This document shows positions 5,950-42,030 of a DNA stretch of 64,000 bases, piece by piece. The notes under the pieces were generated by a model. That model ran no database searches, had not been told where the DNA came from, and was given only the letters and a program-made list of their open reading frames with translations. The position numbers and the translations under genes are program-made. The stretch is from a bacterium (GTDB lineage: Bacteria > Patescibacteriota > Patescibacteriia > SG8-24), in contig JAKAKZ010000003.1 of assembly GCA_021824285.1 (NCBI GenBank), positions 571 through 64,570 of the forward strand, read 5' to 3'. How positions within the stretch are numbered: position 1 is the first letter of the stretch; each line of letters opens with the position of its first letter.

Positions 5950-6027
5950 TGGCGGGTCCGAAGGGATTCGAACCCTCGGTCTTCTCCGTGACAGGGAGAC
6001 GTGTTAACCGGGCTACACCACGGACCC
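5950..6027 (-). tRNA. tRNA-Asp (anticodon GTC), CCA encoded
   Basis: Reverse complement GGGTCCGTGGTGTAGCCCGGTTAACACGTCTCCCTGTCACGGAGAAGACCGAGGGTTCGAATCCCTTCGGACCCGCCA. A full cloverleaf can be drawn: 7-bp acceptor, D-stem GTGT/ACAC, anticodon stem TCTCC/GGAGA with loop CTGTCAC, T-stem GAGGG/CCCTT. Confidence 0.9.
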
Positions 6028-12296: not shown

Positions 12297-12693
12297 GGGG
12301 ATGCCAGGCATCGACGGGGGATCTTTTCACGCCACGCAAGCCGAGCATGTCCGACGTCTCGTTAAACCGCGGACGAATGATCAAGTGCCAACTTGCTCAA
12401 TCGGGTGAAGAACGCGGTGGCCAACGCCTTCGCGCCTTCATTCGCTCCGGCTTTCGCCTAAGCGCGTAAGCCCATCCGTCCGGCCGATGTCCGATAGGTC
12501 GGGTGCGGGTGTCATTTTTCGGACAGAGCCGCGGCGTTTCTCCTGCGCCGGGGCCGACTCATGGCAGGGGATAGGGAAGCCGGATTTCGGCCGATTACCA
12601 CCGGATTCCCGAAATACCTGAACCGGCCTACGCTTGTACACGTGTCGTGAACCGGCCCACCGGACGGGAGTTCGATTCTCCCCATCTCCACCA
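12297..12693 (+). ncRNA. ssrA: tmRNA (ssrA), standard one-piece
   Basis: 5' GGGGATG pairs with 3' CATCTCC before ACCA, including the G3-U pair. The 3' end GGACGGGAGTTCGATTCTCCCCATCTCCACCA is a tRNA-like T-arm. An in-frame tag reading frame ends ...ANAFAPSFAPAFA-TAA. The gene is adjacent to smpB. Confidence 0.85.
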
Positions 12694-20660: not shown

Positions 20661-20705
20661 CAAGGGGACTGTCCCTTTTTGTTCAAAAGGGGACACTCCC
20701 CTGTG
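20661..20705. repeat. REP elements (GGGGACTGTCCC palindromes) of the RAYT-associated family
   Basis: caaggggactgtccctttttgttcaaaaggggacactcccctgtg. The same units flank the transposase at 35809-35880 and 36496-36575. Confidence 0.6.
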
Positions 20706-27169: not shown

Positions 27170-29215
27170 TTATTTCAAAACTACCTGAAACACGTCGGCC
27201 GTGAGCGTCAGTATTTCCGCTTTGCCGTCCTTGTCGATGTCCGCGGCTGCCACGTAGACGCCGTTGCGCGCTGCCGGGTCGCCGGCGAAGAAGCCCTTGC
27301 CCCAAGCTTTGCCATAACCGGAAAACACGCGGACGTGCGGTCCGCCGCCTGGCGCCGCCCCGGTAATGACTTCTGCCTTGCCGTCGCCATCCAGGTCAGC
27401 CGCGGCCACGCGGACGCCGCCGGTGAAACCGATGCCGTAAGGCTGGAAAGCGGCAATCTGCTGTCCGTCTTTGGAGTAGATGCGGACCATGGAGGTTGTG
27501 CCTTTGCCGCTGCCGGTCACGATGACCGGCCGGTTCGTGCCGTAGACGTCCGCCACCGCGACTTGTACGCCGCCACGCAGGTTCTTGTCGCCAGCGAAAA
27601 AGCCGGGGTTCCAGGCGTGTCCGTCAACGGTCCAAATGCGGACCTGCGGTCCGCCCCCCGCGCCGGCACCGGTCACGATTTCCGGAATGCGGTCGTTATT
27701 CAGGTCGCCGACCGCGATATGCACGCCGGCTGAATAGGTTTCGCCGTAGGGCGCGAAGGAGGCATGCACCGTACCGTCGGCGTTCCAGATCGTGACGCGG
27801 GTCTTGCCGCCGCTCACCTTGCCCAGCCGGCCGCTGCCGTCCAGGTCCGCAAAGACCATGTCAGCCTGGCCGTCGGCCGCCGCGTCATAGGCGAAGAAAC
27901 CGTTGCGCAGCCGGTCGCCGCTCGCATCATAGATCCGGGCGAACATGCCGTTCGGGAACGTGCTGCCGATGATTTTGGAAATTGGCTTGCGCAGCAGGAT
28001 GCCGTCCTGCGCCGAAAGCGTCACGGAATTGACCACCGTGCCATCGTTGACGTCCGGAGCCTGCGCGCCGCGGATCTTTTCCAGGTCTTGGCCGAAGGTA
28101 ACGGTCTGCGACCGGTTCGTGGAGTTGATGAGCACCACGCCGTCCTCGAAGTCGCGGCGCCAGACGCCGGGCGCCAGACTGCGCGAGCGCAGGTTCAGCA
28201 TGTTGATGGGCTGATTGATGGGGCGCCCCAGGTTCACGTCGTATTCGTCGTAACGCCAGAGCTGACCGTGGTCCTGTTCGCCGAAGTCGTAGGAGAAAAA
28301 GCCGTCGCCCAGGAGCGCGGAGGCGAGGCCGTAGCGCACGCGGCGGTAGTTCGTGCTCTGGTCCGTGTTGCCGCCGTTCATGTTGATGATGAAAGTCGCC
28401 GGATAGCCGACCTCGCGGTGCAGGTTGAGGTAATTCGCCATCACGCCCTGCCAGGTGCCGCCGGCCTCCCAGGGGGTAGGGAAGGACTCGAACATTCGGC
28501 CGTTCACGTACGGCTGCAGTTCGGCGGTCGAGTCGCCGTTCGTCACGATGACCGCGTCCTGACCGAGCAGGTCGCGCGTGGTCTTGAGCAGGTTGACCAT
28601 CGACCGTTTCCAGCCCGTATCGGCGAGCGCCGGGTCGTCTTTCACGCCGTCGCCGTTCAGATCCAGGTCGCCGCCGTTGACCCAGGAGATGTTCGACGAG
28701 AATTCGTCATAGAAAATACCGTCCCAGGCGCCGGAAGCCATGACCGTGTCTTTGGTGAAGTGCGCCAACCAATCACCCCAGCCGCGCAGGGGATTGAGCA
28801 TCCGGGTGCCGGACCAGATGGAAATCTGGTTGCCGCGGCCGTCCTTGAGCCACCAGTCGTCCTTGATGCCGGCACGCAGCTTGGCATGCACCGGATCGGT
28901 CCAGTACTGGTCGTTCCAGGATTTGGTCGGGATGTAGGCGAGGATGATGATCCGCGGGTTCAGCCGCCGCAGCTCGGAGAACATGCCGGCGTTGTAGTAC
29001 TGGGCCTCGAGCGGCAGGACGAGCAGGTCGTAGGCCGCGAGTTTCGGATAGTCCTGCGGTCCGATGTCCGAACCGGCGCGCATGTACATGTCGGCCGTGC
29101 GCACGAAGCGGTCGGCCGGGGTCTTCAAGGAAGCCGCCTCGGCCGGGAGCACGAGCGACAGCAGCGTCAAGGCCGCCACGGCAACCGTCAGTATTTTTTT
29201 CCAGTCAGCGCTCAT
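27170..29215 (-). CDS. secreted putative glycoside hydrolase (GH114/TM1410-like) with C-terminal FG-GAP repeats
   Basis: Signal peptide [27 protein letters not shown]. The N-domain (~400 aa) has a TIM-barrel-like pattern; GH114 assignment is tentative. The C-terminus has four or more FG-GAP-like repeats ([52 protein letters not shown]). Confidence 0.55.
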   Translation of the reverse strand: [681 protein letters not shown]

Positions 29216-29275: not shown

Positions 29276-29563
29276 CTACCCGCCGTCTTTATTGTCATCA
29301 GGCAGCGCCTTGGGGTTCGGGCTGTACAGCCGGTTCTTGATTTTCCACTGGTTCACGAATTGTCCGATGCCAAAATTCTTCGCCTTGTTCCTGATCTTGG
29401 GGCGCTCTTGGGACCAGCGGACCAGGCTTTCGAAATTGATCTTGTAGCGGCCGCGCACGACGACATATGTCAGAGCGCCGTCCGCCAGGGCACGGCGGAT
29501 GGTTCGGGTATTCACGCCGAAGAGCCGGGCGGCTTCGGAAACGGATACGCGGACGATGTTCAT
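29276..29563 (-). CDS. HTH_17/excisionase-family DNA-binding protein (95 aa)
   Basis: MNIVRVSVSEAARLFGVNTRTIRRALADGAL is a classic HTH. Start at the ATG at ~29563. It is divergent from the ECF sigma gene. Confidence 0.6.
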   Translation of the reverse strand: MNIVRVSVSEAARLFGVNTRTIRRALADGALTYVVVRGRYKINFESLVRWSQERPKIRNKAKNFGIGQFVNQWKIKNRLYSPNPKALPDDNKDGG

Positions 29564-29915
29564 AGCTGTGGGTGAAGATTGTGGGATAAAGATGCGGGCA
29601 GGAGGTGAGGCCATCAGATTAGATGCCCGTTTCTTTGCCGCCATCTCTATTTATCTCTCGATTTCTATTTATCACAATCCACAATATTAGTCAACATTAC
29701 TGTAGACTTATGTCGGCAATTTAGGCTCTTGAACCCTTTTGCTACAGTGCTTCGTATTAATGATTACGCAATCGCCGCCACCCATATATTCAGTCCGCCG
29801 TTGAGCTTCTTTGGGCTTAAAAGGATTGCCAGAAAGCACCCAGCATGCTATATTCGTCCAGTCATTTTAATCGGCAGGGTGGAGCTTATTTTCAATTCAA
29901 AGCTCCTCCCAGGGT

Positions 29916-29943
29916 GTAACGCTTGGCCGCTTCTTACGTCTAA
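29916..29943 (+). promoter_or_regulatory. candidate ECF-type autoregulatory promoter GTAAC-N16-CGTCTAA, 8 nt upstream of ATG
   Basis: gtGTAACgcttggccgcttcttaCGTCTAAttggATG. An AAC -35 and CGTC -10 resemble ECF sigma promoters. The transcript would be leaderless. Confidence 0.4.
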
Positions 29944-29947
29944 TTGG

Positions 29948-30547
29948 ATGTCGAACATTTTGAAAGAAAAATTCCTCCTGTTCCGCATCCGCGCCAAGAA
30001 GGACCCCGATGCCTTCGGCCAGATCTACGACGCCTACGTGCGCAAGATCTACCGTTTCATCTACTTCAAAGTCGCGAGCGCGGAACTGGCCGAGGATCTC
30101 ACTTCCGAGACCTTCCTGAAGGCCTGGCAGTACCTGATGGAGAAGCGTGAGGTCCCGCATCTGCAGGCCCTCCTATATACAGTCGCGCGCAACGTGGTCA
30201 TCGACCACTACCGCGCGGCGGCCCACCTGCAGGCGGACATCCCGCTCGACGAAGCCGTGGCCAACGAACTGACTTCCGCGGGGAGCGAAAAGCTCCTCAA
30301 GGACGTCGAGGCCGGCATCGACATGATGAAGGTGCTCGAGAAGCTCCGCGGACTCAAAGACGAGTACCGCGAAGTCGTGGTCATGAAGTATCTCGACGAG
30401 CTAACCACGAGTGAGATCGCAACGGCCTTGGGGAAGACTCAAGCCAACGTCCGGGTCATCCTGCACAGGGCGACCAAGGCGCTCGGCGATTCTATCCAAG
30501 ACGCCCGTGAACGAACTCCGCAAAATCCTGACCGCAGTGAAGAATGA
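29948..30547 (+). CDS. ECF-type sigma-70 family RNA polymerase sigma factor
   Basis: Region 2 (YRFIYFKV...AEDLTSETFLKAW) and region 4 (VVVMKYLDELTTSEIATALGKTQANVRVILHRATKAL). Start at MSNILKE, ATG 29948. Confidence 0.85.
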   Translation: MSNILKEKFLLFRIRAKKDPDAFGQIYDAYVRKIYRFIYFKVASAELAEDLTSETFLKAWQYLMEKREVPHLQALLYTVARNVVIDHYRAAAHLQADIPLDEAVANELTSAGSEKLLKDVEAGIDMMKVLEKLRGLKDEYREVVVMKYLDELTTSEIATALGKTQANVRVILHRATKALGDSIQDARERTPQNPDRSEE

Positions 30548-30602
30548 ACGGCGAGGTGGCGCCCCGCACGATTCTTGGGTTTCCCGCGAACGCGACATCC
30601 TG

Positions 30603-31568
30603 ATGATGCAGGTCCGCAACACGATGGACCTCAACGCGAAACCCGGACTCGGCGACTCGATGCGCCACCTTTTCGGTATCTTCCTGCCGCTCCAGACCCT
30701 GGCCCTCGCCGGCCGGGCCGTCGCGCTGTTCGCCCTGGTGTTCGCCACCGTCATCGGCGGCGGCGCCGCGACCGCCAACCTCTACCGGGCCGCCATGCCG
30801 GGCTCCGTGGGCTATTCCTTCAAGCTGGCCGTCGAGAAGCTGCAGCTGGCCGTCGCGCCGACCGCAGAATACCGTGCCAACCTGTTCGCCGAGTTCGCCG
30901 ACCGCCGCATGGATGAGGTGGCCAAGCTCGCGGAAGCCGGCAAGAGCCGCACGAGCGACCACCTGCCCTCCGTCCTGGCTTCCTTATCTAAAGACATCAC
31001 CGGTTTGGGCGGTGCGCTCGCCGATCTCGAGAAGTCCCGCGACGCCGCCTCGCTCGAATCCGCCAAGCTGATGGAGCGCAAGATGGCCAGCTACCAGGCC
31101 GCGCTTTCCAGGTCCGCGGCGCTCATCGCGCCGTCTTACCACGGCGACTTCCTGGCGGTGCGCGACCGTGTGGATGACCTCTCGGTCAAGGCCATGGCCG
31201 TCATCGTGGAGAAGCATCTGGAAGGGGACAGCGCGGCGCCGCGCGGCGTGCTCGTGGCCAAGTTCGAGGATCACCTGAACGAGGCCGAAGCGAAAGCCGA
31301 ACAGGCGGCGGCGACGGCATCGCCGGAGAAGACCCAGCAGACCAAGGCCGCCATCGCCGAAGCGAAACAGCTGGTGAAGGAAGAGAAGTACGAAGCGGCG
31401 CTCTCCAAGATGGCGGAAGTCGTCGAACTGACCAAGGATGTGGAGGCGACGAACCAGGATGAAGCCAAGACGAATGACGCCACAACCGACCATGTCGCGG
31501 CCCCGGACAAGAACGCCACGAACGATCTGACCGCCACGACCGACAAGACTGAAACGCCGAAACCATAA
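30603..31568 (+). CDS. DUF5667-like membrane protein (sigma-associated, anti-sigma candidate)
   Basis: Short N-terminus, TM helix (LFGIFLPLQTLALAGRAVALFALVFATVIGG), then PGSVGYSFKLAVEKLQLAV...FAEFADRRMDEVAKLAE matching DUF5667, then a coiled-coil with a K/E/A/T-rich tail. The start may lie earlier (a GTG at ~30537 overlaps the sigma gene stop). Confidence 0.6.
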   Translation: MMQVRNTMDLNAKPGLGDSMRHLFGIFLPLQTLALAGRAVALFALVFATVIGGGAATANLYRAAMPGSVGYSFKLAVEKLQLAVAPTAEYRANLFAEFADRRMDEVAKLAEAGKSRTSDHLPSVLASLSKDITGLGGALADLEKSRDAASLESAKLMERKMASYQAALSRSAALIAPSYHGDFLAVRDRVDDLSVKAMAVIVEKHLEGDSAAPRGVLVAKFEDHLNEAEAKAEQAAATASPEKTQQTKAAIAEAKQLVKEEKYEAALSKMAEVVELTKDVEATNQDEAKTNDATTDHVAAPDKNATNDLTATTDKTETPKP

Positions 31569-31699
31569 AAACGTCACATATATATAGGAGCGGAGCGCAA
31601 GGCCCCTCCGGAAAAACAAAAACACCTAAACAAACACCTTCGCCGTCGCATAACATCGCTCACTACAATCCGACACGGTTCAAGGCTCAATGGCACTGG

Positions 31700-31776
31700 T
31701 TGTTGGGTTGAGAGTTGAAAGTTGACAGTTGAGTTCCGGCCGGGACTTTCAACTTTAAACTCTAAACTTTCAACCG
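31700..31776. repeat. AGTTGA/AACTTT-type inverted repeat
   Basis: gttgagagttgaaagttgacagttgag ... gactttcaactttaaactctaaactttcaacc. Confidence 0.5.
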
Positions 31777-32021
31777 CACGAACAATGCCATTGGGTCTGG
31801 CAACCGAACGCCTGACCGTGCGCCCGATCCGCGCGCCCGCTTCCCTTCGAAAAGGAACGGCCGCTGCAGATCGGCCGCACTGTCCGGTAACCGGTCGTTC
31901 AGACCCGTATATGTCGGAAACACGACGCATCAGCCCACAAGGTCGAGTCCCACAAGGACGCTGGCGCGTACGCCGCCGCAGGATTACCTGCGGGGCTACT
32001 CCAAAAGGATTACTTCAACTT

Positions 32022-35000
32022 ATGAACAACGTGTTACGTATGAGCCGGAAGGCCATGACGGGCGCTGTCGTCGCTACGACGATCGCCTGGTCCATCGGTC
32101 TCTCCGCCCTCGTCGCCCCGCTGGCCGTCAAGGCCGCGCCGGCTGCGGGCACGCTCGTCAAGGCTTCCCTCCCGGCCGTCTACTACGTCGGCTCGGACGG
32201 CAAGCGCTATGTCTTCCCGAACGAGAAGACCTACAAGACCTGGTACGCTGATTTCTCCAGCGTCCAGACCATCACTGATGCGGAACTCGCCGCGCTCCCG
32301 ATTGGTGGCAACGTCACCTACAAGCCGGGCGTCCGCATGATCAAGATCACCTCGCTCCCGAAGGTGTACGCCGTCTCCAAGGGCGGTGCGCTCCACTGGG
32401 TCACCAGCGAGGCGGTCGCCACCGCGCTCTACGGCGCGAACTGGAACAAGATGATCGATGACGTACCGGATTGGGCGTGGGTCAACTACGTCGAGTCCTC
32501 GGACATCAACTCGGCCAGCGATTTCAACGCTTCCTCCGAGTCGTCCATCGCCTCGATCAACCTCGACAAGAACCTCGGCAGCTCCGCTGTCGTTACGGGT
32601 GCCTTGTCCGCCTCTCTCAGCTCGAGCAGCCCGGCTGCCACGACGCTGCCGAAGGGCGCCACTGGCGTCGTTCTCGTCAAGCTTGATGTCCGCAACGGCG
32701 GTTCGTCCGCCGCGGTCGTCGACTCCCTGACGGTGCGCCGCTCCGGTCCGGGCGCGGCCTCGGATTTCTCCGCGGTCTACGTCTACAACGACAACAACCG
32801 CCTGACCACCGGTCGGACGATCAACTCGTCCACCAACGAGGCCTCGTTCAGCGGTCTCGGCCTGTCGCTCGCCGCTGGTGAGAGCAAGTCTCTCTCCATC
32901 GTCGCCGACATCGCCTCGTCCGTTGGCGCCGGCAACGTCAGCGCGTTCTCCGTCGTCTCTCTGAGCGCCGGTACGACCGCCGCTTCCGGCCTGCCGCTCG
33001 CTGGCCCGAACTTCACCATGTCTTCCGCCACGGCCGGTTCCCTGACTGTCACCAAGTCCGGCGCCAGCCCGCTGTCCAACGTCAAGTTGGGCGGTATGGC
33101 CCAGAAGATCGGTGAGTTCCAGCTCGCCGTCGGCTCCGCCGAGGATGTCCGCCTCGCCAAGATTGCCTTGTACGAGGCTGGCGCGGTCAGCAAGTCCTCT
33201 CTCTCCAACTTTGCCCTCAAGCAGGCCGGTCTGACGATCGCCACTGCCGCGGGTATCGACAGCAAGGATCGCGTCACCTTCGTGCTCGCGGCTCCGATGC
33301 TCCTGGAGAAGGGCACTTCCCGCACCTTCGAGGTGTTCGCTGATGTCGCGGCCAACGCCCGCGTCGGCTCCACCGAGACCATCCTCTCCTACGTCGATCA
33401 GGCCTCTGACGTTCTCGCGATCGGTCAGACCTACGGCGTCGGCGTGAGCGTGGATATCGGCTCCTCCGGCAACTACAACGGCACTTCCTGTGCCCTGGGC
33501 GCCGGCAACTGCTCCTCGACTCGCATTGAGGGCGGCCAGCTGACGGTTACCTTCAACGGCCCGGCCGTTAAGGACATCGCCGTCAACGGCAAGGATGTCG
33601 AGCTCTACAACTTCACCATGGCTGCGGCCAGCAACCTCGAAGTGCGCTACCTGCGCATGCAGATCAATGCTGCCAACGTCGCTGGTACCAACGACGGTCT
33701 CATCGACACGTCCGGCACCGCGGTCGCCAACTACTCGGACATCAAGGTCACCGACGTCGCCACTGGCGCCATCGTGGCCGGTCCGCTGTCGTTGAGCACC
33801 TCGGGTTCCGACTCCACCCAGGCTCTGACCTTCACCGAGGTGTTCAACCTCGCTCCGGGCCAGGCCCGCACCTTCAAGGTGACGGCTGATGTCGCGAACA
33901 ACGCCGACGCCACCTTCGCCAACGACACGGTCAGCATCGACCGCCTCGCTTGGAGCTCTGGTGACATCCGCAACCTGGACAACAGCACCAACATTGCCCT
34001 CTCCGACATCGTGCCGAACACGACTGCCGCGGGTAATGCCCACAACATCAAGTCCCCGAGCCTGACGGCCTCCGCCGGTTCCACGCCGGTCGCGCAGACC
34101 TTCATCATGGGTTCGCAGGGCGTCGCGTTCCTCGGTCTCAACCTGAAGGCGGGCGATGCGTCTGACATCAACGTCAGCTCGCTCACCCTCAAGGGCATGA
34201 TCGACGCTACGCAGGACGGCACCTTCGCCCAGGGTCAGGAATCCACTGGCAACACTGTCGCCGCGGTCGTCGCGACGGCTAAGCTGATGAACGGTGCGAC
34301 CCAGCTCGGTCAGACCAAGTCCCCGGCCACGTCTTCGGGCGTCGGCACTGGCGGCGACATGACCTTCGACAACCTGAACCTCACGGTTCCGAAGGGCCAG
34401 TCGCTCGCTCTGACGCTCGTCGTCAACCTGAACGGCGGTCTCGGCTCGATCTCGAGCGACCTCCGCTTCGACGTGACCGCCGGCTCCGCTACGGATGCTG
34501 ACGGCAACAACGTCTCGGTCAGCGGCCTGACGGTCACTGGCACGAAGATGACGGTCAAGTCCGCCGGTACGCTCACGCTGGCTCTCGCTCCGGATGATAC
34601 GGAGTCCGAGGCCGGTCTGGTCGTCGGTGGTTCTTCGAACGCCGTCCTCGGCAAGTTCAAGTTCACCGCCCAGAACGAGGAGCTGAAGCTCACCAAGCTT
34701 AACGCCACGGTCGATACGGCCGCCGGCGTCAGCAGCTTGAGCCTCTTCGACGGTTCCACCCTCGTCGCCGGTCCGATCGGCGTCGACGGCACGGGCCTCG
34801 CCTCCTTCACTGGCGTCAACTTCGTCATCCCGAAGGATGCTTCTAAGGTCCTGACCGTTAAGGGCAACCTGAACGCGGTGGGCGCCTCCGGCGCTACGAC
34901 CGGTTCCTCGGTCCGCCTCGGTCTGTCCACCACCAACTTCGAGGTCCGCGGCACGTCGGCCGGCTCCAGCACTCTGCTGACCGCCCCGTCCTCCGGCGCC

Positions 35001-35561
35001 TTCCCGTTGGCGGCCAACCCGAAGGTCGCCCGCAAGTCCAAGCCGACGGTGTCCGTTGTCGCTCTGCCGACCACGACGCTGTCCGGCGGCGACCAGGTCG
35101 TCCTGCGCTTCACGGTTGCGGCTGACGCTGCCAGCGACATCTCGCTCGGCCAGCTCCACGCCACGATCACGAAGAGCGGTTCCGTCGTCGTTGCCCTCCC
35201 GGCTTCGCCGACCACCAAGACCCTGCGCCGCACTGGTGGTGACTTCATCACCCTCGGCACTGTGACCTTCTCGACCAACGACCTGCTCATGGTCCTCTCC
35301 ACGGAGGAGACCGTCGCGGCTGGCACGTCCAAGACCTTCGAGGTCTACATGAACATGACCAGCGCCGCGAACGGCGACAGCGTTACGTCCACCATCCCGA
35401 CGGATGCGGCTAGCGCCACGGGCACTCTGTCCGGCCTCTCGGCCAACAACTTTGTCTGGTCCGACATGTCCATTGTCGGCCACGGCACGGGTACGGCTGA
35501 CTGGGCTTCTGGCTACAAGGTCAAGAGCCTGCCGACGGACTCCCAGTCGCTGGTCAAGTAA
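32022..35561 (+). CDS. giant secreted surface protein (1179 aa): conserved ~105-aa N-terminal module + long low-complexity beta-rich region
   Basis: Signal peptide MNNVLRMSRKAMTGAVVATTIAWSIGLSALVAPLAVKAAPAAG. The module AVYYVGSDGKRYVFPNEKTYKTWY...VTYKPGVRMIKI...KVYAV...LYGANWNKMIDDVPDWAWVNY is followed by ~1000 aa of A/S/T/G/V-rich repeats. The opposite-strand 1149-aa ORF is an artefact. Confidence 0.75.
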   Translation: MNNVLRMSRKAMTGAVVATTIAWSIGLSALVAPLAVKAAPAAGTLVKASLPAVYYVGSDGKRYVFPNEKTYKTWYADFSSVQTITDAELAALPIGGNVTYKPGVRMIKITSLPKVYAVSKGGALHWVTSEAVATALYGANWNKMIDDVPDWAWVNYVESSDINSASDFNASSESSIASINLDKNLGSSAVVTGALSASLSSSSPAATTLPKGATGVVLVKLDVRNGGSSAAVVDSLTVRRSGPGAASDFSAVYVYNDNNRLTTGRTINSSTNEASFSGLGLSLAAGESKSLSIVADIASSVGAGNVSAFSVVSLSAGTTAASGLPLAGPNFTMSSATAGSLTVTKSGASPLSNVKLGGMAQKIGEFQLAVGSAEDVRLAKIALYEAGAVSKSSLSNFALKQAGLTIATAAGIDSKDRVTFVLAAPMLLEKGTSRTFEVFADVAANARVGSTETILSYVDQASDVLAIGQTYGVGVSVDIGSSGNYNGTSCALGAGNCSSTRIEGGQLTVTFNGPAVKDIAVNGKDVELYNFTMAAASNLEVRYLRMQINAANVAGTNDGLIDTSGTAVANYSDIKVTDVATGAIVAGPLSLSTSGSDSTQALTFTEVFNLAPGQARTFKVTADVANNADATFANDTVSIDRLAWSSGDIRNLDNSTNIALSDIVPNTTAAGNAHNIKSPSLTASAGSTPVAQTFIMGSQGVAFLGLNLKAGDASDINVSSLTLKGMIDATQDGTFAQGQESTGNTVAAVVATAKLMNGATQLGQTKSPATSSGVGTGGDMTFDNLNLTVPKGQSLALTLVVNLNGGLGSISSDLRFDVTAGSATDADGNNVSVSGLTVTGTKMTVKSAGTLTLALAPDDTESEAGLVVGGSSNAVLGKFKFTAQNEELKLTKLNATVDTAAGVSSLSLFDGSTLVAGPIGVDGTGLASFTGVNFVIPKDASKVLTVKGNLNAVGASGATTGSSVRLGLSTTNFEVRGTSAGSSTLLTAPSSGAFPLAANPKVARKSKPTVSVVALPTTTLSGGDQVVLRFTVAADAASDISLGQLHATITKSGSVVVALPASPTTKTLRRTGGDFITLGTVTFSTNDLLMVLSTEETVAAGTSKTFEVYMNMTSAANGDSVTSTIPTDAASATGTLSGLSANNFVWSDMSIVGHGTGTADWASGYKVKSLPTDSQSLVK

Positions 35562-35769
35562 TGACCGCGTAAGGGTTCTCGTGACTCCTTTGGTCTAAAA
35601 GTCACGGTGCGCGGTACGTGAGTCGGGTGCGGTCGGGGAGTCGGACGCCAAAATAGCGTCCGGCCACCCGCCCACCCGCTCGCGCCGCCGCCTCGGGTCT
35701 CGGTCCGCAATAAAAGCGTTCCGACTAGCCCAACTCGCGCTGCCTGCTCATTCAGGCCGCGCGCCGCAA

Positions 35770-35795
35770 GACACCGGCTTCCGCCGGTGTTTTGC
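35770..35795 (+). terminator. rho-independent terminator
   Basis: caccggc-ttcc-gccggtg followed by ttttgc. Confidence 0.55.
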
Positions 35796-35808
35796 TTATC
35801 CACAAGGG

Positions 35809-35880
35809 GACAGTCCCTTTTTCACCCAAAAGGGACAGTCCCTTTTTGGGTCAAAAGGGACTGTCCCCTAAAAGTCCTTC
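35809..35880. repeat. REP cluster (3 units of AAAGGGACWGTCCCTTTT) flanking RAYT
   Basis: aaggggacagtccctttt, aaaagggacagtcccttttt and aaaagggactgtccccta. The last unit overlaps the transposase stop. Confidence 0.7.
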
Positions 35881-36449
35881 CGTTTCTTGATCGGGTTTTG
35901 CTGCCACGCTCTCGTCATTGCCCGATATTCCGCTTGGCGTTCCATTGGATTAACTGCAAGTGAAAGATACAGCGGATTTTGATCTATCAACGAATCAGGT
36001 TGGCCATATGCGTAAGTCACATAACTAGACCAAGGGTAGCCTTCTGGATTTTTCGTAATGCCGGCTCTAACAGGATTCAACTCAATATAGATTCCGCAGA
36101 TTGATTGGTAGGCCTCATCAGTAACGATGCGGCTATGGAAACGGCCTTGCCATAAATGTCCGACAAAACCGTATTTTTTCTTATAATAAAGCGAATAAGT
36201 TTGATTGATTGTCTTCATTATAATTGCCAGATTTTGACCGCCGGACACCAATAATTGCATGTGCAGGTGATTGTTCATGACGCAATAATGATAGAGAAGA
36301 AAGGGTGTTTCTTTTTTGGCCTTCTGCACGATGGCCAACATGGCATAAAAGTCCTCATCATCTAGAAAAATGATGTTTTTGTTGTTGCCGCGGCTGACAA
36401 CGTGATAGATCGCCGTACCTGATTCGATTGGTCTGGCAGTTCTTGGCAT
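35868..36449 (-). CDS. IS200/IS605-family Y1 HUH transposase (REP-associated tyrosine transposase, RAYT-like)
   Basis: IYHVVSRGNNKNIIF...HLHMQLLV (HuH) ...TYSLYYKKKYGFVGHLWQGRFHSRIV matches the Y1 transposase fold. The gene is markedly AT-rich compared with the surrounding genome. Start at MPRTARP (ATG ~36449). Confidence 0.7.
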   Translation of the reverse strand: MPRTARPIESGTAIYHVVSRGNNKNIIFLDDEDFYAMLAIVQKAKKETPFLLYHYCVMNNHLHMQLLVSGGQNLAIIMKTINQTYSLYYKKKYGFVGHLWQGRFHSRIVTDEAYQSICGIYIELNPVRAGITKNPEGYPWSSYVTYAYGQPDSLIDQNPLYLSLAVNPMERQAEYRAMTRAWQQNPIKKRKDF

Positions 36450-36495
36450 AGCGCGCTTTCTTTTACACCGTAGCGGCGTCCTTTCAAGGCAGTTA

Positions 36496-36575
36496 TCCAC
36501 AAGGGGACTGTCCCTTTTTTGGTCAAAAGGGACTGTCCCTTTTTGGCCCAAAAGGGACTGTCCCCTTTGTGCTAT
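36496..36575. repeat. REP cluster (3 units) on the other flank of RAYT
   Basis: ccacaaggggactgtcccttttttggtcaaaagggactgtccctttttggcccaaaagggactgtcccctttgtgc. Confidence 0.7.
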
Positions 36576-36586
36576 ACTTGGCGCAT

Positions 36587-37789
36587 ATGCGCCCACGACT
36601 CCTTTCTCATCTCGCGCTGGCATCATTGCTGGCCGTCTCTCTAATTCCTTCCATGCCCGCCGCTGCCACCGGGCAGACTTACGTTGCGGATACCGAAATC
36701 CAGGTCGGCAGCTCGACGCTCAAGATCATGGCCGGCTCCGAGGCGGACAGTCTGTCAGTCGCCGGCAACAGCCTGACCGTGACCGTGGCGCCGGATGAGG
36801 TCTTTGACCTGCGCTATCCGGGCGGCAATCCGCTGGGTCTCGAGAACGATTCCGGCTTGGCCGCCTGCAACGTCCTGCCGAACCGCGATAACCAGCTGCT
36901 GATCACCGGGCCGCACACCGTGACTGTCTCGGTCAGCACCTTCGCCTGCAGCACGGCCAATTACAGCACCAACAGCACGCCCCTTCTCACCGTCTCCCAG
37001 CCGGCTGGCGGAGCGTCGTTCAAGCCCGGCGATAGCGCGCAGATCTTCTGGCAGCTGACCGGCCATTCCGTGGCCAGCATCCGGATCCGCCTGTCCGTCG
37101 ACGGGGGATTGAGCTATCCGACCACCTTGGTCGACAACCTGCTGAACAGCGGCTTCTATTCCTGGACCGTGCCGGAGATGACCACGACGACGCACGCCCG
37201 GCTGAAGATCGAGGGGCGCACCCAGGGGGCAACGTCCGCCTGGGCCTTGAGCCAGGAATTCTCCATCCAGGGCGCAGCGCCCGCCGCGCCGGCTGAAACG
37301 GCGGCGCCGGCACCTGGCGGTTATTCGCCAGAGGCGGTCACGGCCGAGGCCGATTCCATCGGGCATGATCGGGGCTTTGTCAGTACGCCGGAAGCCGCAT
37401 CCTCCGAGTGCCCGGCCGGATTGCGTATCAAGGGTCGCGGTCTGCCAGCGGTCTATTACTGCGGCCCGGACGGCAAGCGGCATCCTTTCCCGAACCAGAA
37501 GATCCATGATTCGTGGTATGCCGGCGATTTCGCCGGAGTCTACGAGGTCGCCGACTCGACCCTGGCGCGGATTGCGCTCGGCCAGAACGTGACCTACCGG
37601 CCTGGAGTGCGCATGGTCAAGGTGACTACGGACCCCAAGGTCTATGCCGTGGACGCCGACGGCACGCTGCGGTGGATCAAGACCGAAGCGGCGGCGGCGC
37701 GGCTTTACGGCGCGGACTGGAACAAGAAGATCGATGACCTGCCGGACGCCTTCTTCTTCGATTACCATACAGGCGATCCCATCGAATGA
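36587..37789 (+). CDS. secreted protein with C-terminal copy of the conserved ~105-aa module
   Basis: Signal peptide MRPRLLSHLALASLLAVSLIPSMPAAA. The mid-region resembles Ser/Thr-rich surface domains. The C-terminus AVYYCGPDGKRHPFPNQKIHDSWY...VTYRPGVRMVKV...KVYAV...LYGADWNKKIDDLPDAFFFDY is the shared module. Confidence 0.65.
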   Translation: MRPRLLSHLALASLLAVSLIPSMPAAATGQTYVADTEIQVGSSTLKIMAGSEADSLSVAGNSLTVTVAPDEVFDLRYPGGNPLGLENDSGLAACNVLPNRDNQLLITGPHTVTVSVSTFACSTANYSTNSTPLLTVSQPAGGASFKPGDSAQIFWQLTGHSVASIRIRLSVDGGLSYPTTLVDNLLNSGFYSWTVPEMTTTTHARLKIEGRTQGATSAWALSQEFSIQGAAPAAPAETAAPAPGGYSPEAVTAEADSIGHDRGFVSTPEAASSECPAGLRIKGRGLPAVYYCGPDGKRHPFPNQKIHDSWYAGDFAGVYEVADSTLARIALGQNVTYRPGVRMVKVTTDPKVYAVDADGTLRWIKTEAAAARLYGADWNKKIDDLPDAFFFDYHTGDPIE

Positions 37790-37906
37790 ACGCGACGGCG
37801 GACCGCCGGCCCCAGCGGCCGGCGGTTTTGGCTCACGGCCCGGCGGTTGCCAAGCCCCGACTTTTCGGCTAGGGTCAGTGATGTATTACAGCTAATTTTC
37901 AACCGT

Positions 37907-39106
37907 ATGCGCCGCAATATCCAGCATTTCCCGCTCGCCGTCCTGATGTCCCTGGCTCTCGCCCTGCCGCTCCTGCCGGCGCGACCGGCCGCCGCGACCG
38001 TTCTGGGTGTCTTTCCGGGCGACCTCATCAAGCTGCAGGACGACCATAATTCCCAGACGCATGAGGACGAGGCCGTCTATTATTTCGACAAGGATTGGTT
38101 CCGCCATCCCTTCCCGAACCAGCGCGTGTTCATGAGCTGGTACCGGGACTTTTCCGGCGTGAAGTCGCTGTCCACGACGGACATGGCCGATATCCGCATG
38201 GGGGCGCCCGTGACCTACCGGCCCGGCACGCGGCTCGTGAAAATCCCTTCAATCCCGAAAGTCTACGCAGTGGAACCGGGCGGCATTCTGCGCTGGATCA
38301 CGGACGAGTCGGTCGCCAAGGACCTCTATGGCGCCAACTGGTCCAAGCGGGTGGACGACGTGAGCGAGGCCTTCTTCGTCAACTACAAGGAAGGCGAACC
38401 GCTGCGCACGGCAATGTGGCCGACCGGCACGCTGGTCCGCAATCCGGCGGACAAGACGCTTTATGTCATCGACGGCTACTCGCGCCGCCATGTCACCGCG
38501 ACGGAAGCCGCGTCGCTGCGGCTTAACGAGTCCGACGCGCTGGACGGCGGCACGGCTATTGAGGAGCTGCCCATGGGACCGTCGGCCACAGCCGGCGGCG
38601 ACCGCCTGTCCGATACCGCCGAGCTTTCCCGGATCGAGACCTTGCCGGCCCTGCAGATAGATTTCCCGGCGCCGGTCACGGCCGCGGCACGCGGCGCGGA
38701 GCAGGTGCTCCTGTCCATGCGGCTCACTGCCGGCGCGCCGGTAACCTTACGGCGTCTCACGGCCAAGCTCTCCGGACCGGTCCGGCTGAACGGCCAGCCG
38801 CTGCTCACTGATCTGCGGTTTGAGGATTCGGCGGGCGAGAACATCTTCGGCACGGTCCAGCTGCCGGCCGACAGCGGAGACGAACTCGCGACGCTCGTCT
38901 GGAACGGTGCCTTCACTCTGCAGGCCGGCACGGAAGACATGGTGAAACTGCTGGCATCGGTCTCGGCGGACATGCCGGCCGGAGCGCAACTGACCATCGA
39001 GCTGCCGCGGTCCGGATCCTACGTCTCCGATGGCTTCGACGCTGAGGAACGCGCGCAATTCGCGCCGCCCGGCGAACTCCCGGACGCCAAAGTGACCTTC
39101 CGCTAA
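37907..39106 (+). CDS. secreted protein with N-terminal copy of the conserved ~105-aa module
   Basis: Signal peptide MRRNIQHFPLAVLMSLALALPLLPARPAAA. AVYYFDKDWFRHPFPNQRVFMSWY...VTYRPGTRLVKI...KVYAV...LYGANWSKRVDDVSEAFFVNY. Confidence 0.65.
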   Translation: MRRNIQHFPLAVLMSLALALPLLPARPAAATVLGVFPGDLIKLQDDHNSQTHEDEAVYYFDKDWFRHPFPNQRVFMSWYRDFSGVKSLSTTDMADIRMGAPVTYRPGTRLVKIPSIPKVYAVEPGGILRWITDESVAKDLYGANWSKRVDDVSEAFFVNYKEGEPLRTAMWPTGTLVRNPADKTLYVIDGYSRRHVTATEAASLRLNESDALDGGTAIEELPMGPSATAGGDRLSDTAELSRIETLPALQIDFPAPVTAAARGAEQVLLSMRLTAGAPVTLRRLTAKLSGPVRLNGQPLLTDLRFEDSAGENIFGTVQLPADSGDELATLVWNGAFTLQAGTEDMVKLLASVSADMPAGAQLTIELPRSGSYVSDGFDAEERAQFAPPGELPDAKVTFR

Positions 39107-39112
39107 GAGAAG

Positions 39113-39140
39113 GAACGCGCCTCCCCAGGCGCGTTTTTTC
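39113..39140 (+). terminator. rho-independent terminator
   Basis: aacgcgcc-tcccca-ggcgcgtt followed by ttttc. Confidence 0.7.
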
Positions 39141-39162
39141 GCCGCCGAACTCCTGGGCCGAA

Positions 39163-39175
39163 CGGTGGTATAATG
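39163..39175 (+). promoter_or_regulatory. extended -10 TGGTATAAT ~8 nt upstream of ATG (leaderless candidate)
   Basis: cggTGGTATAATggccgcatATGg. Confidence 0.45.
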
Positions 39176-39182
39176 GCCGCAT

Positions 39183-41498
39183 ATGGTTACGGCATCCCGT
39201 ATGGGCAAGATTCTGGCTGCCGCCGCCTGCCTGGCGGCGGTATTGGCGGTCCGTCCGCCGGCGGAAGCCGCTGCTTCGTACCAGGCCGGCGACCTGGTCA
39301 AGGCACCGGACAGCCGAGCCGTGTATTACGTCGGCTCCGACGGCCGGCGCTATGTCTTTCCGAACCAGCTGACCTACCTGACCTGGTACGGAGATTTCGC
39401 GTCGGTCAGGACCATCGCGGACGCGGAATTGGCCGCTCTTTCGATCGGCGGCAACGTCACTTACCGCCCCGGAACCAGGCTCGTGAAGATCGTCTCCGAT
39501 CCGCGGGTCTATGCCGTCGAACCGGGCGGCGTCCTGCGGCCAATTCCGGACGAGAGCGCGGCCGTCGCGCTCTACGGCGCGGACTGGTCGAAGCGGGTGG
39601 ACGATGTCCCTGATGCATTTTTTTTCAGCTACCGGATCGGCGCGCCGCTCGCGGCCGCGGCCTACCCGGAAGGCTCTTGGGTGCGGCGGGTCTCCGACGG
39701 CCGGATCTTCCTGATCCAAGACGGCCAGAAACGTGAGGTCTCCGGCTCATTGCTCACCGCGCTTCGCGTCACCGCGGCGCAGATCATGCCGGAGACGGCC
39801 GACCTGAACGGCTATGCCCTCGGCGCGCCGCTTGAGCAGACCGAGAGCCTGAACGACACCGCCCAGCTGGGCATCGAGCGGACTACCGCCGCTCCCGTGG
39901 CGTCGCTCTACCTGCAGCCGGCGACCGACCCCGGCATGCCAATCTACGTACGTGGAACCAAGGACGCGGCCATCGCTGGCCTGCTCCTCATGGACGGTTC
40001 CGCGGATCCGGTCACGGTCTCGGCCATCACCTTCCAGGGTTACGTGGACAGCGAAGGCACTGCGGGCTTCCTGCCGGCGGTGGATTCCGATGGGGGATCG
40101 GCCAAGCACGTGAATGCGATCCTGCCGGCCGCGTCTCTCTACGACGACACCGGCCGACTGCTGGCCGGTCCGGTGCCGATCGGACTTGACGGCCGGGCGT
40201 TCTTCAGCGGTTTCCGCCTGGCGGTTCCGGCCGGCGGCAGCCGTACGGTCGTGATCAGAGGGGACATCCCGGCGTACCTGGATACCGGTCTCGAGCCGGA
40301 TTATCTAGCGTTCGACGTGGAGGACGCGGTCCGCGACGTCACGGTCACGGATGCGGCCGGCGGCAGCGTCAAAGCGACCGGCAACCGGCCGAATCGCGGG
40401 ACCGAGGCCTTCAACTACGCGAAGATTCTGCGCAGCGGAACGGTCAATTTCACCTGGCGCGGCACGACGACCGTGATGATCGGTGGGCGCGACGCCAAAC
40501 TCGGCACTCTGACGGTGGATACGAAATACGATACCTACGCCTTGCGCACGATTGCCTTCCGGCGGACCAGCCAGACTTCTTATGGCGACGCGCGGCTGGA
40601 ATATCCCGGTGCGGACGGCAAGACCGTTTCGAAGACGGTCCAATGGCGCGGCGGCGCGGCCGTGTTCACCGATTTGGGAGCGTACTTGCCGCGGGACTCG
40701 TCCGTGGGCCTCGCGCTCTACGCGCAGGTCCTGTCCCGCGATACCGGGGGAGTCTACGGCGATGCGCTTGGCGCGCAGCTCGACACCGCCGGACCGCTGC
40801 AGTTCGTATCCCAGGCCGAGGGCGCGACCTATTCGGAGAAGGATTTGGGCAACGGTTCGTTTGGTCTCGTGGCCAATACGGCCGGTCGGGTAACGGTTCG
40901 CTATTCCGGCTTGAGCGTCACGCCGTTGCCGACCGCCGTCGCATTCCGCGACAGCAATACGCCGCTGCTGGCCTTCTCCGCCAAAGCGGAACCCGAGGGT
41001 CCCATCCGGATCAGGAAGATGACGTTTCGCATCAGCCCGGATGACGCGGGACGTTCCGGGGCCGCGAATGATGCGCTCGAACTCTGGGCGGGACGTCCGG
41101 CGACTTCGATTGCAGCCGTGCGCCGCGTCTATTCGACCACGACCGAACTCCTCGGTACTCCCGGCAACGGCCGGCTGCGTTTCCGGGAGTGGCGCGGCAA
41201 CGGCACGGAGATCGACCAGGCGCAGCCGTTCCAGTCGAACATCGGCGACTACGCCACGCTGGAGCTGGACTTCGGCGAGAACGGCGAGTATCTGATACCG
41301 GCTGGCCTGACGGCCGATTTCCGGTTCGAATTGGACACGACCGTTTTCCCGACTGATCGCGATCACCGCTGCGCCGTCGAGCTGCGCGGCGACGCGGATT
41401 TCCTTTGGACCGACATCCCGTATGGCGCCTACACCGCGCTCGGCGGCACGGACGCGGGCGGTGTGCCCTTCTCGGCCACGGTTACGGTGAATAAATAA
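39183..41498 (+). CDS. secreted protein (771 aa) with N-terminal copy of the conserved ~105-aa module
   Basis: Signal peptide MVTASRMGKILAAAACLAAVLAVRPPAEA. AVYYVGSDGRRYVFPNQLTYLTWY...VTYRPGTRLVKI...RVYAV...LYGADWSKRVDDVPDAFFFSY, then ~600 aa without a recognised domain. The start could alternatively be MGKIL at 39201. Confidence 0.65.
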   Translation: MVTASRMGKILAAAACLAAVLAVRPPAEAAASYQAGDLVKAPDSRAVYYVGSDGRRYVFPNQLTYLTWYGDFASVRTIADAELAALSIGGNVTYRPGTRLVKIVSDPRVYAVEPGGVLRPIPDESAAVALYGADWSKRVDDVPDAFFFSYRIGAPLAAAAYPEGSWVRRVSDGRIFLIQDGQKREVSGSLLTALRVTAAQIMPETADLNGYALGAPLEQTESLNDTAQLGIERTTAAPVASLYLQPATDPGMPIYVRGTKDAAIAGLLLMDGSADPVTVSAITFQGYVDSEGTAGFLPAVDSDGGSAKHVNAILPAASLYDDTGRLLAGPVPIGLDGRAFFSGFRLAVPAGGSRTVVIRGDIPAYLDTGLEPDYLAFDVEDAVRDVTVTDAAGGSVKATGNRPNRGTEAFNYAKILRSGTVNFTWRGTTTVMIGGRDAKLGTLTVDTKYDTYALRTIAFRRTSQTSYGDARLEYPGADGKTVSKTVQWRGGAAVFTDLGAYLPRDSSVGLALYAQVLSRDTGGVYGDALGAQLDTAGPLQFVSQAEGATYSEKDLGNGSFGLVANTAGRVTVRYSGLSVTPLPTAVAFRDSNTPLLAFSAKAEPEGPIRIRKMTFRISPDDAGRSGAANDALELWAGRPATSIAAVRRVYSTTTELLGTPGNGRLRFREWRGNGTEIDQAQPFQSNIGDYATLELDFGENGEYLIPAGLTADFRFELDTTVFPTDRDHRCAVELRGDADFLWTDIPYGAYTALGGTDAGGVPFSATVTVNK

Positions 41499-41624: not shown

Positions 41625-41852
41625 ATGTTCCCTCCATTCGGCAAATCAGATGACCCGCCGGACTCCGGCATAGAAGGACCCTTCGGTCCGCCTGGCGGCG
41701 GTCCGCCCCCTTCGGACGGCCGCTTCGCCGATTTCGCGGGCGAAGACATGGACGGTTTCCTTGAACCCGTGGATTTCAGCCGGCGACAGCGCCGGATCGA
41801 CGACTGCCTGCAGGTCGGTCTGCACTTCTTCGGGGCCCTGCGTCGGTCATGA
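41625..41852 (+). CDS. small acidic Pro/Gly-rich protein (75 aa), hypothetical
   Basis: Has its own promoter-like -10 and a downstream hairpin with a T-tract (41868-41892). It is compositionally unusual, so coding status is uncertain; it could be a leader peptide or sRNA. Confidence 0.3.
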   Translation: MFPPFGKSDDPPDSGIEGPFGPPGGGPPPSDGRFADFAGEDMDGFLEPVDFSRRQRRIDDCLQVGLHFFGALRRS

Positions 41853-41867
41853 ACAAAATAACTGTAC

Positions 41868-41892
41868 AACCCCGCCTAGCGCGGGTTTTTCC
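41868..41892 (+). terminator. terminator after small ORF
   Basis: aaccccgc-ctagc-gcgggtttttcc. Confidence 0.55.
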
Positions 41893-42030
41893 GTTTCCGT
41901 GCCTTGCGTTGTCGCTACGGCCACGCTCTGTTACAATTCGCGCATTATGCGGTTGTCTGTATCGCCTGTCCATGAGCGCCGTTGCGGCGGAATCGACCGT
42001 ACAGCTAAGCGGTTAAGGACCGTCGGCGCC

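Follow-up and report, generated by a model that had tools for sequence, protein, structure and literature searches.

We analysed a 64,000-nucleotide stretch of DNA (hereafter the window; 63% G+C) from an uncultivated, very small member (Candidatus Uhrbacteria) of the Patescibacteria, or candidate phyla radiation (CPR), taken from contig JAKAKZ010000003.1 of assembly GCA_021824285.1. The CPR origin agrees with the names borne by relatives of the encoded proteins, which are Candidatus Uhrbacteria, Parcubacteria or Patescibacteria. Near the middle of the window, a gene for a helix-turn-helix (HTH) protein diverges from a gene for an extracytoplasmic function (ECF) sigma factor, which is followed on the same strand by the genes for a single-pass membrane protein of the DUF5667 family and for a giant secreted protein, the latter preceded by a structured leader. 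Three more genes for secreted proteins, called here par2, par3 and par4, lie downstream (Table 1). A sequence-only reading of this DNA had proposed that the sigma factor, with the DUF5667 protein as a partner, controls the whole set of surface proteins. The assignments of the HTH and ECF sigma genes were borne out, while those of the other genes stood in part, as described below.

We compared the locus with a close set from Candidatus Uhrbacteria (11 genome loci and 22 metagenome loci) and with a distant set of seven DUF5667-family representatives, four of which were compared by BLAST; individual loci are given L numbers. In every Uhrbacteria locus of sufficient length the same order was kept, namely two glycosyltransferases, a membrane protein, a GHL15 protein and the HTH gene on one side, and the divergent sigma, DUF5667 and giant genes, an optional transposase gene and par2 on the other. 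In the distant set, an ECF sigma gene stood immediately upstream of the DUF5667 gene in 7/7 loci, and a large protein of 770 to >1,270 aa was encoded in 6/6 loci that reach downstream. The divergent HTH gene was found in all Uhrbacteria loci covering its position as well as in the 6/6 distant loci that cover it, one of them unannotated and read from the DNA. Identities in the first four distant loci were 38-46% for the sigma factor, 22-29% for the DUF5667 protein and, over full length, 23-30% for the giant protein; the HTH protein reached 55-57% in two distant loci compared by BLAST, higher than the sigma factor. The N-terminal module of the giant protein, described below, is also present in the distant orthologues. 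Since the genes of the distant loci are orthologous by BLAST, the core of HTH, sigma, DUF5667 and giant genes is, judging from this comparison, an old conserved functional unit with variable flanks. The earlier proposal of an autoregulated ECF sigma factor paired with a DUF5667 membrane protein and linked to the giant gene is thus upheld by synteny across distant relatives.

Table 1. Coordinates of genes and sequence features at the locus (positions in the window)
Feature	Position (nt)	Strand	Remarks
HTH gene	29276-29563	-	HTH_17/excisionase-type, 95 aa, divergent from sigma gene
Palindrome GTCAACA-TTAC-TGTAGAC	29690-29707		adjoins HTH gene
Housekeeping-type promoter TTGCCA-17-TATATT	29826-29854	+	upstream TG; from consensus scan
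ECF-type, putatively autoregulatory promoter TGTAAC-N16-CGTCTAA	29915-29943	+	conserved directly 5' of sigma start
ECF sigma gene	29948-30547	+	199 aa
DUF5667 gene	30507-31568	+	353 aa, single-pass membrane protein
Second ECF-type promoter candidate TGAAAC-N16-CGTCA	31550-31578	+	TGAAACGCCGAAACCATAAAAACGTCACA; faces giant gene, straddles DUF5667 stop codon
Structured 5' leader	31584-32021	+	about 440 nt, conserved element
Leader 5' strand GGGUCUGGCAACCG	31793-31806	+	
Leader 3' strand CGGUCG..AGACCC	31892-31906	+	
Leader GUAUAU	31907-31912	+	
Leader AAGGUCGAG	31939-31947	+	followed by hairpin 31948-31958 and a further hairpin
Giant secreted protein gene	32022-35561	+	1179 aa
Shared module, giant protein	32118-32489	+	aa 33-156
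Terminator-like hairpin ACACCGGC-TTCC-GCCGGTGT, then TTTTG	35761-35786	+	after giant gene; read from the sequence, not in the consensus-scan listing
RAYT region	35807-36568	-	gene and two triple REP arrays
Triple REP arrays GGGAC[AT]GTCCC	35807-35871 and 36504-36568		spaced by TTTTT-N6-AAAA
RAYT/IS200-like gene	35868-36449	-	REP arrays on both flanks
Extended -10 promoter TGcTATACT	36570-36578	+	8 nt 5' of par2 ATG
par2	36587-37789	+	secreted, 400 aa
Shared module, par2	37388-37765	+	
Terminator-like hairpin	~37803-37829	+	after par2
par3	37907-39106	+	secreted, 399 aa
Shared module, par3	38072-38413	+	
Terminator	39114-39139	+	after par3
Extended -10 promoter TGgTATAAT	39166-39174	+	8 nt 5' of par4 ATG
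par4	39183-41498	+	secreted, 771 aa
Shared module, par4	39258-39632	+	

Promoters of the sigma operon and the giant gene

The sigma factor matched Sigma70_r2 (PF04542, 1.7e-11) and r4_2 (PF08281, 1.8e-12), and also Sigma70 r4. It scored 84.5 against TIGR02937 (cut-off 42.9) and had no region 3 match, which places it among the ECF (group IV) sigma-70 factors. Its closest solved structure is BldN (6dxo_A, 1.6e-19), followed by SigW. With 112.7 bits against TIGR02952 ('BldN family'), it stays under the cut-off of 206.45 and outside the BldN/ECF121 family, and it begins approximately 20 aa ahead of region 2, without an N-terminal pro-sequence.

Directly upstream of the sigma start lies an ECF-type promoter motif, which the sequence-only reading had recognized as GTAAC-N16-CGTCTAA (29916-29940 to the CGTC). 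The site is present and conserved, but its spacing of 8 nt to the ATG had to be corrected, as CGTCTAA ends 4 nt and CGTC 7 nt from the start codon. GTAAC-N16-CGTC was observed once in the window, with 1.42 occurrences expected, and this count alone is not above chance. Conservation was more telling: TGTAAC[GA]C...CGTC[TA] stood directly upstream of the sigma start in 21/21 non-redundant Uhrbacteria loci, 5-7 nt from the start codon, and the motif recurred with the same spacing in four of five distant low-GC loci (L039, L042, L043, L045). When a position weight matrix (PWM) was derived from these sites, they scored at least 23, and just 11 other positions among 585,730 reached at least 12. From this conservation we infer that the sigma factor activates its own gene from this promoter. 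The sigma mRNA is probably leaderless because the gap between CGTC and the start codon leaves no room for a Shine-Dalgarno sequence. In three genes of the window (sigma, par2 and par4), the -10 element lies 7-8 nt upstream of the start codon without a Shine-Dalgarno sequence (29940-29950, 36570-36589, 39166-39185); given this spacing, leaderless mRNAs seem to be common in this organism.

A second, housekeeping-type promoter lies 60-100 nt farther upstream than the ECF-type site; a -10 element TATACT is kept in the loci, and in the distant locus L039 the sigma gene is preceded by a perfect TTGACA-17-TATAAT. The HTH protein matched Pfam HTH_17 (5e-07) and TIGR01764 (3.4e-08). The palindrome adjoining its gene has counterparts in other Uhrbacteria loci (TTGTCTACAnTAnTGTAGACAA) and in the low-GC locus L039 (TTTGTCTAGACATGTCTAGACAAA, ~3190-3215), making it a probable operator of this protein. 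We dropped a relationship of the HTH protein with Streptomyces BldC, the sole match being weak and to a phage excisionase (E 0.36).

No convincing second copy of the motif had been reported upstream of 32022. The PWM revealed a better ECF-type site at 31550-31578, facing the giant gene, whose score of 16.0 is the second-best match in the whole window. The only two window matches of at least 12 lie on the same strand, 1.6 kb apart. When the interval holding this site was dinucleotide-shuffled 200 times, no shuffle reached the observed score. Across loci, scores of at least 15 were found in this interval in 5/23 loci compared with a pooled shuffle rate of 0.00065 per interval, and seven of the 11 non-sigma matches of at least 12 fell within it. 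Equivalent sites were present in L004 (17.3), L006 (16.1), L014 (14.0), L020 (15.1) and L022 (15.1), with weaker ones in L011 (10.9) and L012 (9.2), giving a second site in about 8/23 Uhrbacteria loci. A weak candidate noted previously, GTAAC-N16-TATATG at 31887-31913, was rejected as a promoter, its GTAAC being unconserved and its halves separated by large insertions elsewhere; this site forms the 3' side of a conserved helix in the leader RNA.

The gap between the DUF5667 and giant genes ranges from 170 to 570 nt across loci. In many of them the leader starts inside the last DUF5667 codons, so that its first helix overlaps the stop codon, and a consensus scan of the window predicted no terminator-like site on the + strand between the two genes. 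Because the leader begins within the DUF5667 ORF and no terminator intervenes, read-through is the simplest source of giant mRNA without a second promoter, and the giant gene is likely transcribed by read-through from the sigma operon wherever a second promoter is not visible. The sigma factor would drive the giant gene from the second promoter in this genome and via read-through in other loci.

Alternatively, the two could be neighbours without control: the giant gene would be expressed constitutively, as is typical of surface-layer (S-layer) genes, from a promoter of its own in or upstream of the leader, while the sigma factor and DUF5667 protein would regulate themselves and targets elsewhere, their adjacency to the giant gene reflecting a shared envelope function or co-inheritance. 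The long gaps would agree with this, as would the lack of an ECF motif upstream of the giant gene in 14/23 Uhrbacteria and six distant loci; moreover, highly expressed S-layer genes are known to have long structured leaders. However, the sequence upstream of the leader showed no conserved -35/-10 pair of the housekeeping type, and the conserved GTATAT of the leader is unlike the TGnTATAnT promoters of par2 and par4. The overlap of the first leader helix with the DUF5667 stop codon, a same-strand gene order that survives 22-46% identity, and the recurrence of ECF-type sites at this position far above chance also speak against this alternative. We regard independent expression of the giant gene as possible, though rather unlikely.

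The DUF5667 protein

The DUF5667 gene had been placed at 30603-31568. Its family and end were retained, but the public gene call and an alignment of 27 orthologues put the start at GTG 30507. Nowhere is the protein better conserved than in these 32 additional N-terminal residues and the 10 that follow them (KNERRGGAPHxxWVxxxRxILxMQVRNT). With this start, the overlap with the sigma gene is 41 nt, compared with 47 nt in 18/19 other loci and 44 nt in L010. In 18/19 other loci the start is an ATG located 15 codons upstream of ERRGG; here the codon at this position reads ACG, and the GTG two codons on serves as start. Translation of the DUF5667 gene is probably coupled to that of the sigma gene via this out-of-frame overlap.

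Residues 64-121 of the 321-aa form matched PF18915 with 40.8 bits (gathering cut-off 27), and orthologues carry precomputed matches to the same family. In the AlphaFold2 (AF2) model (mean pLDDT 77), two short cytoplasmic helices (2-14 and 22-39) are followed by one transmembrane helix, an all-alpha ectodomain (pLDDT ~90) and a disordered low-complexity tail. The K/R-rich N-terminus suggests an N-in orientation, and the modelled topology fits that of an anti-sigma factor. The ectodomain appears as a generic helical-repeat bundle with non-specific fold matches. No zf-HC2, RskA or related match was found in Pfam or NCBIfam, which sets the protein apart from class I anti-sigma factors. It does share with anti-sigma factors the adjacency to a sigma gene, seen in all loci, and the single-pass layout with a cytoplasmic N-terminus; the two genes are presumably co-transcribed. 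The 40 cytoplasmic residues are the most conserved, whereas the ectodomain diverges to 22-29% identity, a pattern that would be expected of a sigma-binding segment. On these grounds, the DUF5667 protein is a plausible candidate for an anti-sigma factor or sensor.

When 1.84 billion representative proteins were searched with a profile, the DUF5667 family comprised 8,320 clusters at E<=1e-3, of which 143 passed E<=1e-30, and most of the best 150 of the 8,320 matches aligned from residue 1. Our literature search found no paper mentioning DUF5667, and the main text of the ECF reclassification paper is silent on it. In one metagenome contig (L038, 1188-2166), the DUF5667 gene is split into two ORFs of 191 and 136 aa without Pfam match, either an assembly error or a pseudogene.

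Alternatively, the protein could sit in the membrane as a partner in the structure or assembly of the giant protein, for instance spanning the wall as a spacer or scaffold, which would leave transcription, through the HTH protein and autoregulation, as the only level of control over the sigma factor. A generic helical ectodomain, a tail predicted to be disordered, the lack of a detectable known anti-sigma domain and an HTH gene equally conserved in the cassette are all compatible with such a role. A scaffold would not account as readily for the conserved out-of-frame overlap with the sigma gene, the N-in single-pass topology, or the conservation of the cytoplasmic 40 residues above that of an ectodomain diverged to 22-29%. 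We consider a purely structural role unlikely.

Structured leader and module-bearing secreted proteins

Across loci, the leader of the giant gene consists, in order, of helices P0, P1 and P2, an optional inserted hairpin, GUAUAU, AAAGGUCGRG with a hairpin, a further hairpin and AAAGG; the last element reads AAAGGA in the window, approximately 12 nt upstream of the AUG. P1 pairs GGGUCUGGC.ACCG with CGGU.GC..AGACCU, and the P2 hairpin is variable, holding in many loci a palindrome GGGAC[AU]GUCC that resembles repetitive extragenic palindromic (REP) sequences. Pattern searches found one copy of the leader in every covering locus, always in the DUF5667-giant interval and on the same strand, and none elsewhere. 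The AAAGGUCGR and hairpin unit was recognizable in 6/6 distant loci, from genomes with 36-48% G+C. In the core alignment, standard pairs occupied 89.5% of cells compared with 81.4% after column shuffling (0/500 as high), and this pairing dropped to 28-48% when partners were slid by one to three columns. P0 showed compensatory changes at 10/11 pairs. P1 varied by G-C to G-U changes only, a pattern consistent with pairing in the + strand RNA. The fold of the window leader had a z-score of -6.1, and the 3' GACC could instead pair with the downstream GGUC.

At E<=10, Rfam 15 returned no leader family for positions 29500-32100, just sub-threshold microRNA-hairpin matches. Over the whole window, only a tmRNA and one tRNA reached the gathering score. 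These are a tmRNA gene at 12297-12693 (+, 126.7 bits) and a tRNA-Asp gene at 5950-6027 (-); ARAGORN reported the tRNA only, not the tmRNA.

The C-terminal peptide 'DDAAGSGSR' or 'DAAGSGSR' conserved in DUF5667 orthologues is the translated 5' strand of the leader (GCTGCTGGGTCTGGCAGCCGTTAG, alignment columns 400-421), and its conservation lies at the nucleotide level. Where the peptide occurs, as in L005 (4640-4670), termination of translation would bring ribosomes into the P0 and P1 helices and unwind them. In the window, a long imperfect inverted repeat, GGTTGAGAGTTGAAAGTTGACAGTTGAG...CTTTCAACTTTAAACTCTAAACTTTCAACC (31686-31795), lies just upstream of the conserved leader helix and replaces the short P0 hairpin of other loci; it is apparently specific to this genome. 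Two other interpretations of the leader motifs were rejected. AAAGGTCGR and GTATAT had no partner element at a fixed spacing, as would be expected of promoter elements, and a small upstream ORF after AAAGG had an ATG in only two distant loci. The leader could act through stability, processing, or binding of a protein or ligand. That the element is instead a small RNA gene in its own right, or selfish DNA derived from REPs, is very improbable: it is large, folds on its own and carries the REP palindrome in many P2 hairpins, but it occurs once per locus, always in the same interval and orientation while REPs are found elsewhere, its non-REP parts (P0, P1, AAAGGUCGR and hairpin) are conserved and persist in low-GC distant genomes, and no terminator separates it from the giant gene.

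The giant protein consists of a conserved signal peptide, a module shared with par2, par3 and par4, and a long region without Pfam match. The signal peptide is unusually conserved (..SRKAFT..VVAATIAWSIGLSAL; window 32022-32110, and the giant-gene starts in L039-L045), its core TIxWSxGL being retained at 23-30% overall identity of the giant protein. It may be a dedicated sorting or processing signal; par2, par3 and par4 have ordinary signal peptides, unlike the giant protein. The coordinates and secreted nature of the four ORFs were as first read, but the term paralogs does not hold, as the similarity is limited to one module of approximately 115-130 aa with 48-62% identity among the four proteins, the remainder being unrelated by BLAST. 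The module is N-terminal in the giant protein, par3 and par4, and C-terminal in par2. It belongs to no Pfam family and is neither SLH nor CWB2. The giant protein itself had no SLH or CWB2 match, only a sub-threshold one to fn3_5, leaving it without a known S-layer anchoring domain, and no internal repeats were detected by BLAST at 1e-3. Modelling predicted a PlyCB/EccB-like, wall-binding fold for the module, with the type VII secretion component EccB1 as the best match; the module may bind the cell wall. The S8 protease encoded downstream of par4 (41761-44037) had its best match, under the cut-off, to a type VII secretion mycosin model; the pairing of an EccB1-like module with a mycosin-like protease may be a coincidence. 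The protease ends in FG-GAP repeats resembling those of the upstream GHL15 protein (27170-29215).

The other module-bearing genes do not appear to belong to the sigma regulon. The promoters of par2 and par4 are of the housekeeping type, like that upstream of the sigma gene, and terminators or terminator-like hairpins follow the giant gene, par2 and par3. In no locus did the PWM detect an ECF motif ahead of par2, par3 or par4, and the S8 protease gene and the divergent genes likewise had none upstream. Because par2 and par4 have their own promoters, terminators lie in between and no ECF motif precedes them, we treat par2 to par4 as separate units. The idea of a sigma regulon of surface proteins is therefore narrowed to the linked trio, in which an ECF-type promoter faces the giant gene, and is not supported for par2, par3 and par4.

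The order of the giant gene and the run of secreted genes had been described correctly, but a gene for a REP-associated tyrosine transposase (RAYT) in between had been omitted. Its product matched PF01797 (Y1_Tnp, 1.8e-10), and like other RAYTs it combines a Y1 transposase gene with clustered palindromic repeats on both sides, although its score against NF047646 (REP_Tyr_transpos) is below the NCBIfam equivalog cut-off (66.3 vs 80). A single copy of the REP palindrome was found at 20665-20675. A RAYT gene also follows the giant gene at this position in L004, L007 and L008. The gene is an incidental resident, outside the regulatory cassette. According to the ORF listing and the Pfam/NCBIfam scans, the whole region is an envelope island. 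Upstream neighbours on the opposite strand encode the GHL15/FG-GAP protein, a large membrane protein, glycosyltransferases and a Wzy-like protein, and the S8 protease gene with its FG-GAP repeats is followed by GtrA and epimerase genes.

A putative envelope-regulation cassette

On balance, and with modest confidence, we lean towards a conserved envelope-regulation cassette of Patescibacteria in which the sigma factor and the DUF5667 protein control the giant surface protein. Basal transcription of the sigma gene would come from the housekeeping-type promoter, which the HTH_17 protein may modulate from the palindrome. The sigma factor would amplify its own synthesis from the TGTAAC-N16-CGTC promoter, probably through a leaderless mRNA. 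The cytoplasmic N-terminus of the DUF5667 protein most likely holds the sigma factor inactive, with the helical ectodomain presumably facing the cell wall. Release of the sigma factor would increase transcription of the operon and, here, also transcription from the second ECF-type promoter, which lies across the end of the DUF5667 gene, both routes leading to the structured leader and the giant gene. The giant protein would be anchored through its N-terminal module, with its predicted wall-binding fold, and the leader would add a post-transcriptional step by stability, processing or factor binding. The other three module-bearing proteins would be made from separate units, outside the visible sigma regulon.

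Several observations weigh against this regulatory scheme. The sigma promoter motif was not found in the distant locus L041. No second ECF-type site above background was seen in 14/23 Uhrbacteria loci, and no ECF site precedes the giant gene in the distant loci L039-L043 and L045. Because the second site is mostly absent, ECF control of the giant gene would usually have to rely on presumed read-through. Furthermore, the site at 31550 falls within coding sequence for a tail rich in Glu, Thr and Ser, in which GAAAC and CGTCT are readily produced, although the dinucleotide shuffles argue against a chance origin. The cytoplasmic helices of the DUF5667 protein were modelled with a pLDDT of only 50-70, and searches of the PDB with the single sequence and with a profile gave no match at E<=10, including to solved anti-sigma factors.

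The proposed system would work like an envelope circuit of the BldN/RsbN or SigW/RsiW type, outside those families. In Streptomyces, BldN (ECF121) and its single-pass anti-sigma factor RsbN control a secreted sheath of chaplins and rodlins. Here too, the closest solved relative of the sigma factor is BldN, the partner gene lies immediately downstream and the output would be a surface protein layer. RsbN has an N-terminal cytoplasmic segment, one transmembrane helix and an extracytoplasmic domain of ~270 aa without known homology (PMC6101532), a layout shared by the DUF5667 protein. However, the cytoplasmic domain of RsbN, a protein reported from Streptomyces only, is 117 aa long (PMC6101532), whereas that of the DUF5667 protein is ~60 aa and has no sequence match to the RsbN chain. 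Unlike BldN, the sigma factor is below the TIGR02952 cut-off and lacks a pro-sequence, and the targets are unrelated proteins.

The Bacillus subtilis envelope stress pairs SigW/RsiW and SigX/RsiX resemble the cassette in being autoregulated sigma–partner operons with an AAC-N16-CGT-type promoter, and SigW is the second-best solved match of the sigma factor. SigW recognizes TGAAAC-N16-CGTA and SigX TGTAAC-N17-CGAC. Unlike these pairs, the cassette has no zf-HC2 or class I domain, probably uses a leaderless sigma mRNA, and is linked to a single giant surface-protein gene together with an HTH_17 gene. Wall-anchor modules common to surface-protein paralogs are known from S-layer systems, such as SLH in Sap, EA1 and the BSLs of Bacillus anthracis and CWB2 in SlpA and the Cwp proteins of Clostridioides difficile. 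CPR cells reportedly carry S-layers. As in S-layer systems, one anchor module occurs here in the largest secreted protein and in otherwise unrelated ones, and the leader is long and structured. Unlike in those systems, the module is neither SLH nor CWB2, and its predicted fold is PlyCB/EccB-like.

The CPR is a large, mostly uncultivated group whose members are thought to live attached to other cells, making surface proteins central to their lifestyle. To our knowledge, almost nothing is known about how these proteins are regulated. The locus offers several handles on this question: a four-gene cassette found across divergent members, a sharp promoter motif searchable genome-wide, a candidate new type of anti-sigma factor whose family is very large and uncharacterised, a putative wall-anchor module that is widespread yet unannotated, and a previously undescribed structured leader RNA without counterpart in Rfam. 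A heterologous host would suffice to test each of them, with no cultivation needed. A broader view, speculative and in our judgement quite improbable, is that the DUF5667 family is a Patescibacteria-wide class of ECF anti-sigma factors whose helical ectodomain senses the state of the wall-anchored giant protein or the host contact mediated by it, with the leader as a feedback RNA and, together with HTH_17, a core surface-control circuit of the CPR. If this were true, the >8,000 DUF5667 clusters would represent a new, very large class of ECF anti-sigma factors, and the AAAGGUCGR-hairpin leader a new cis-regulatory RNA, bound by a protein or ligand and closing the loop between surface-layer assembly and synthesis.

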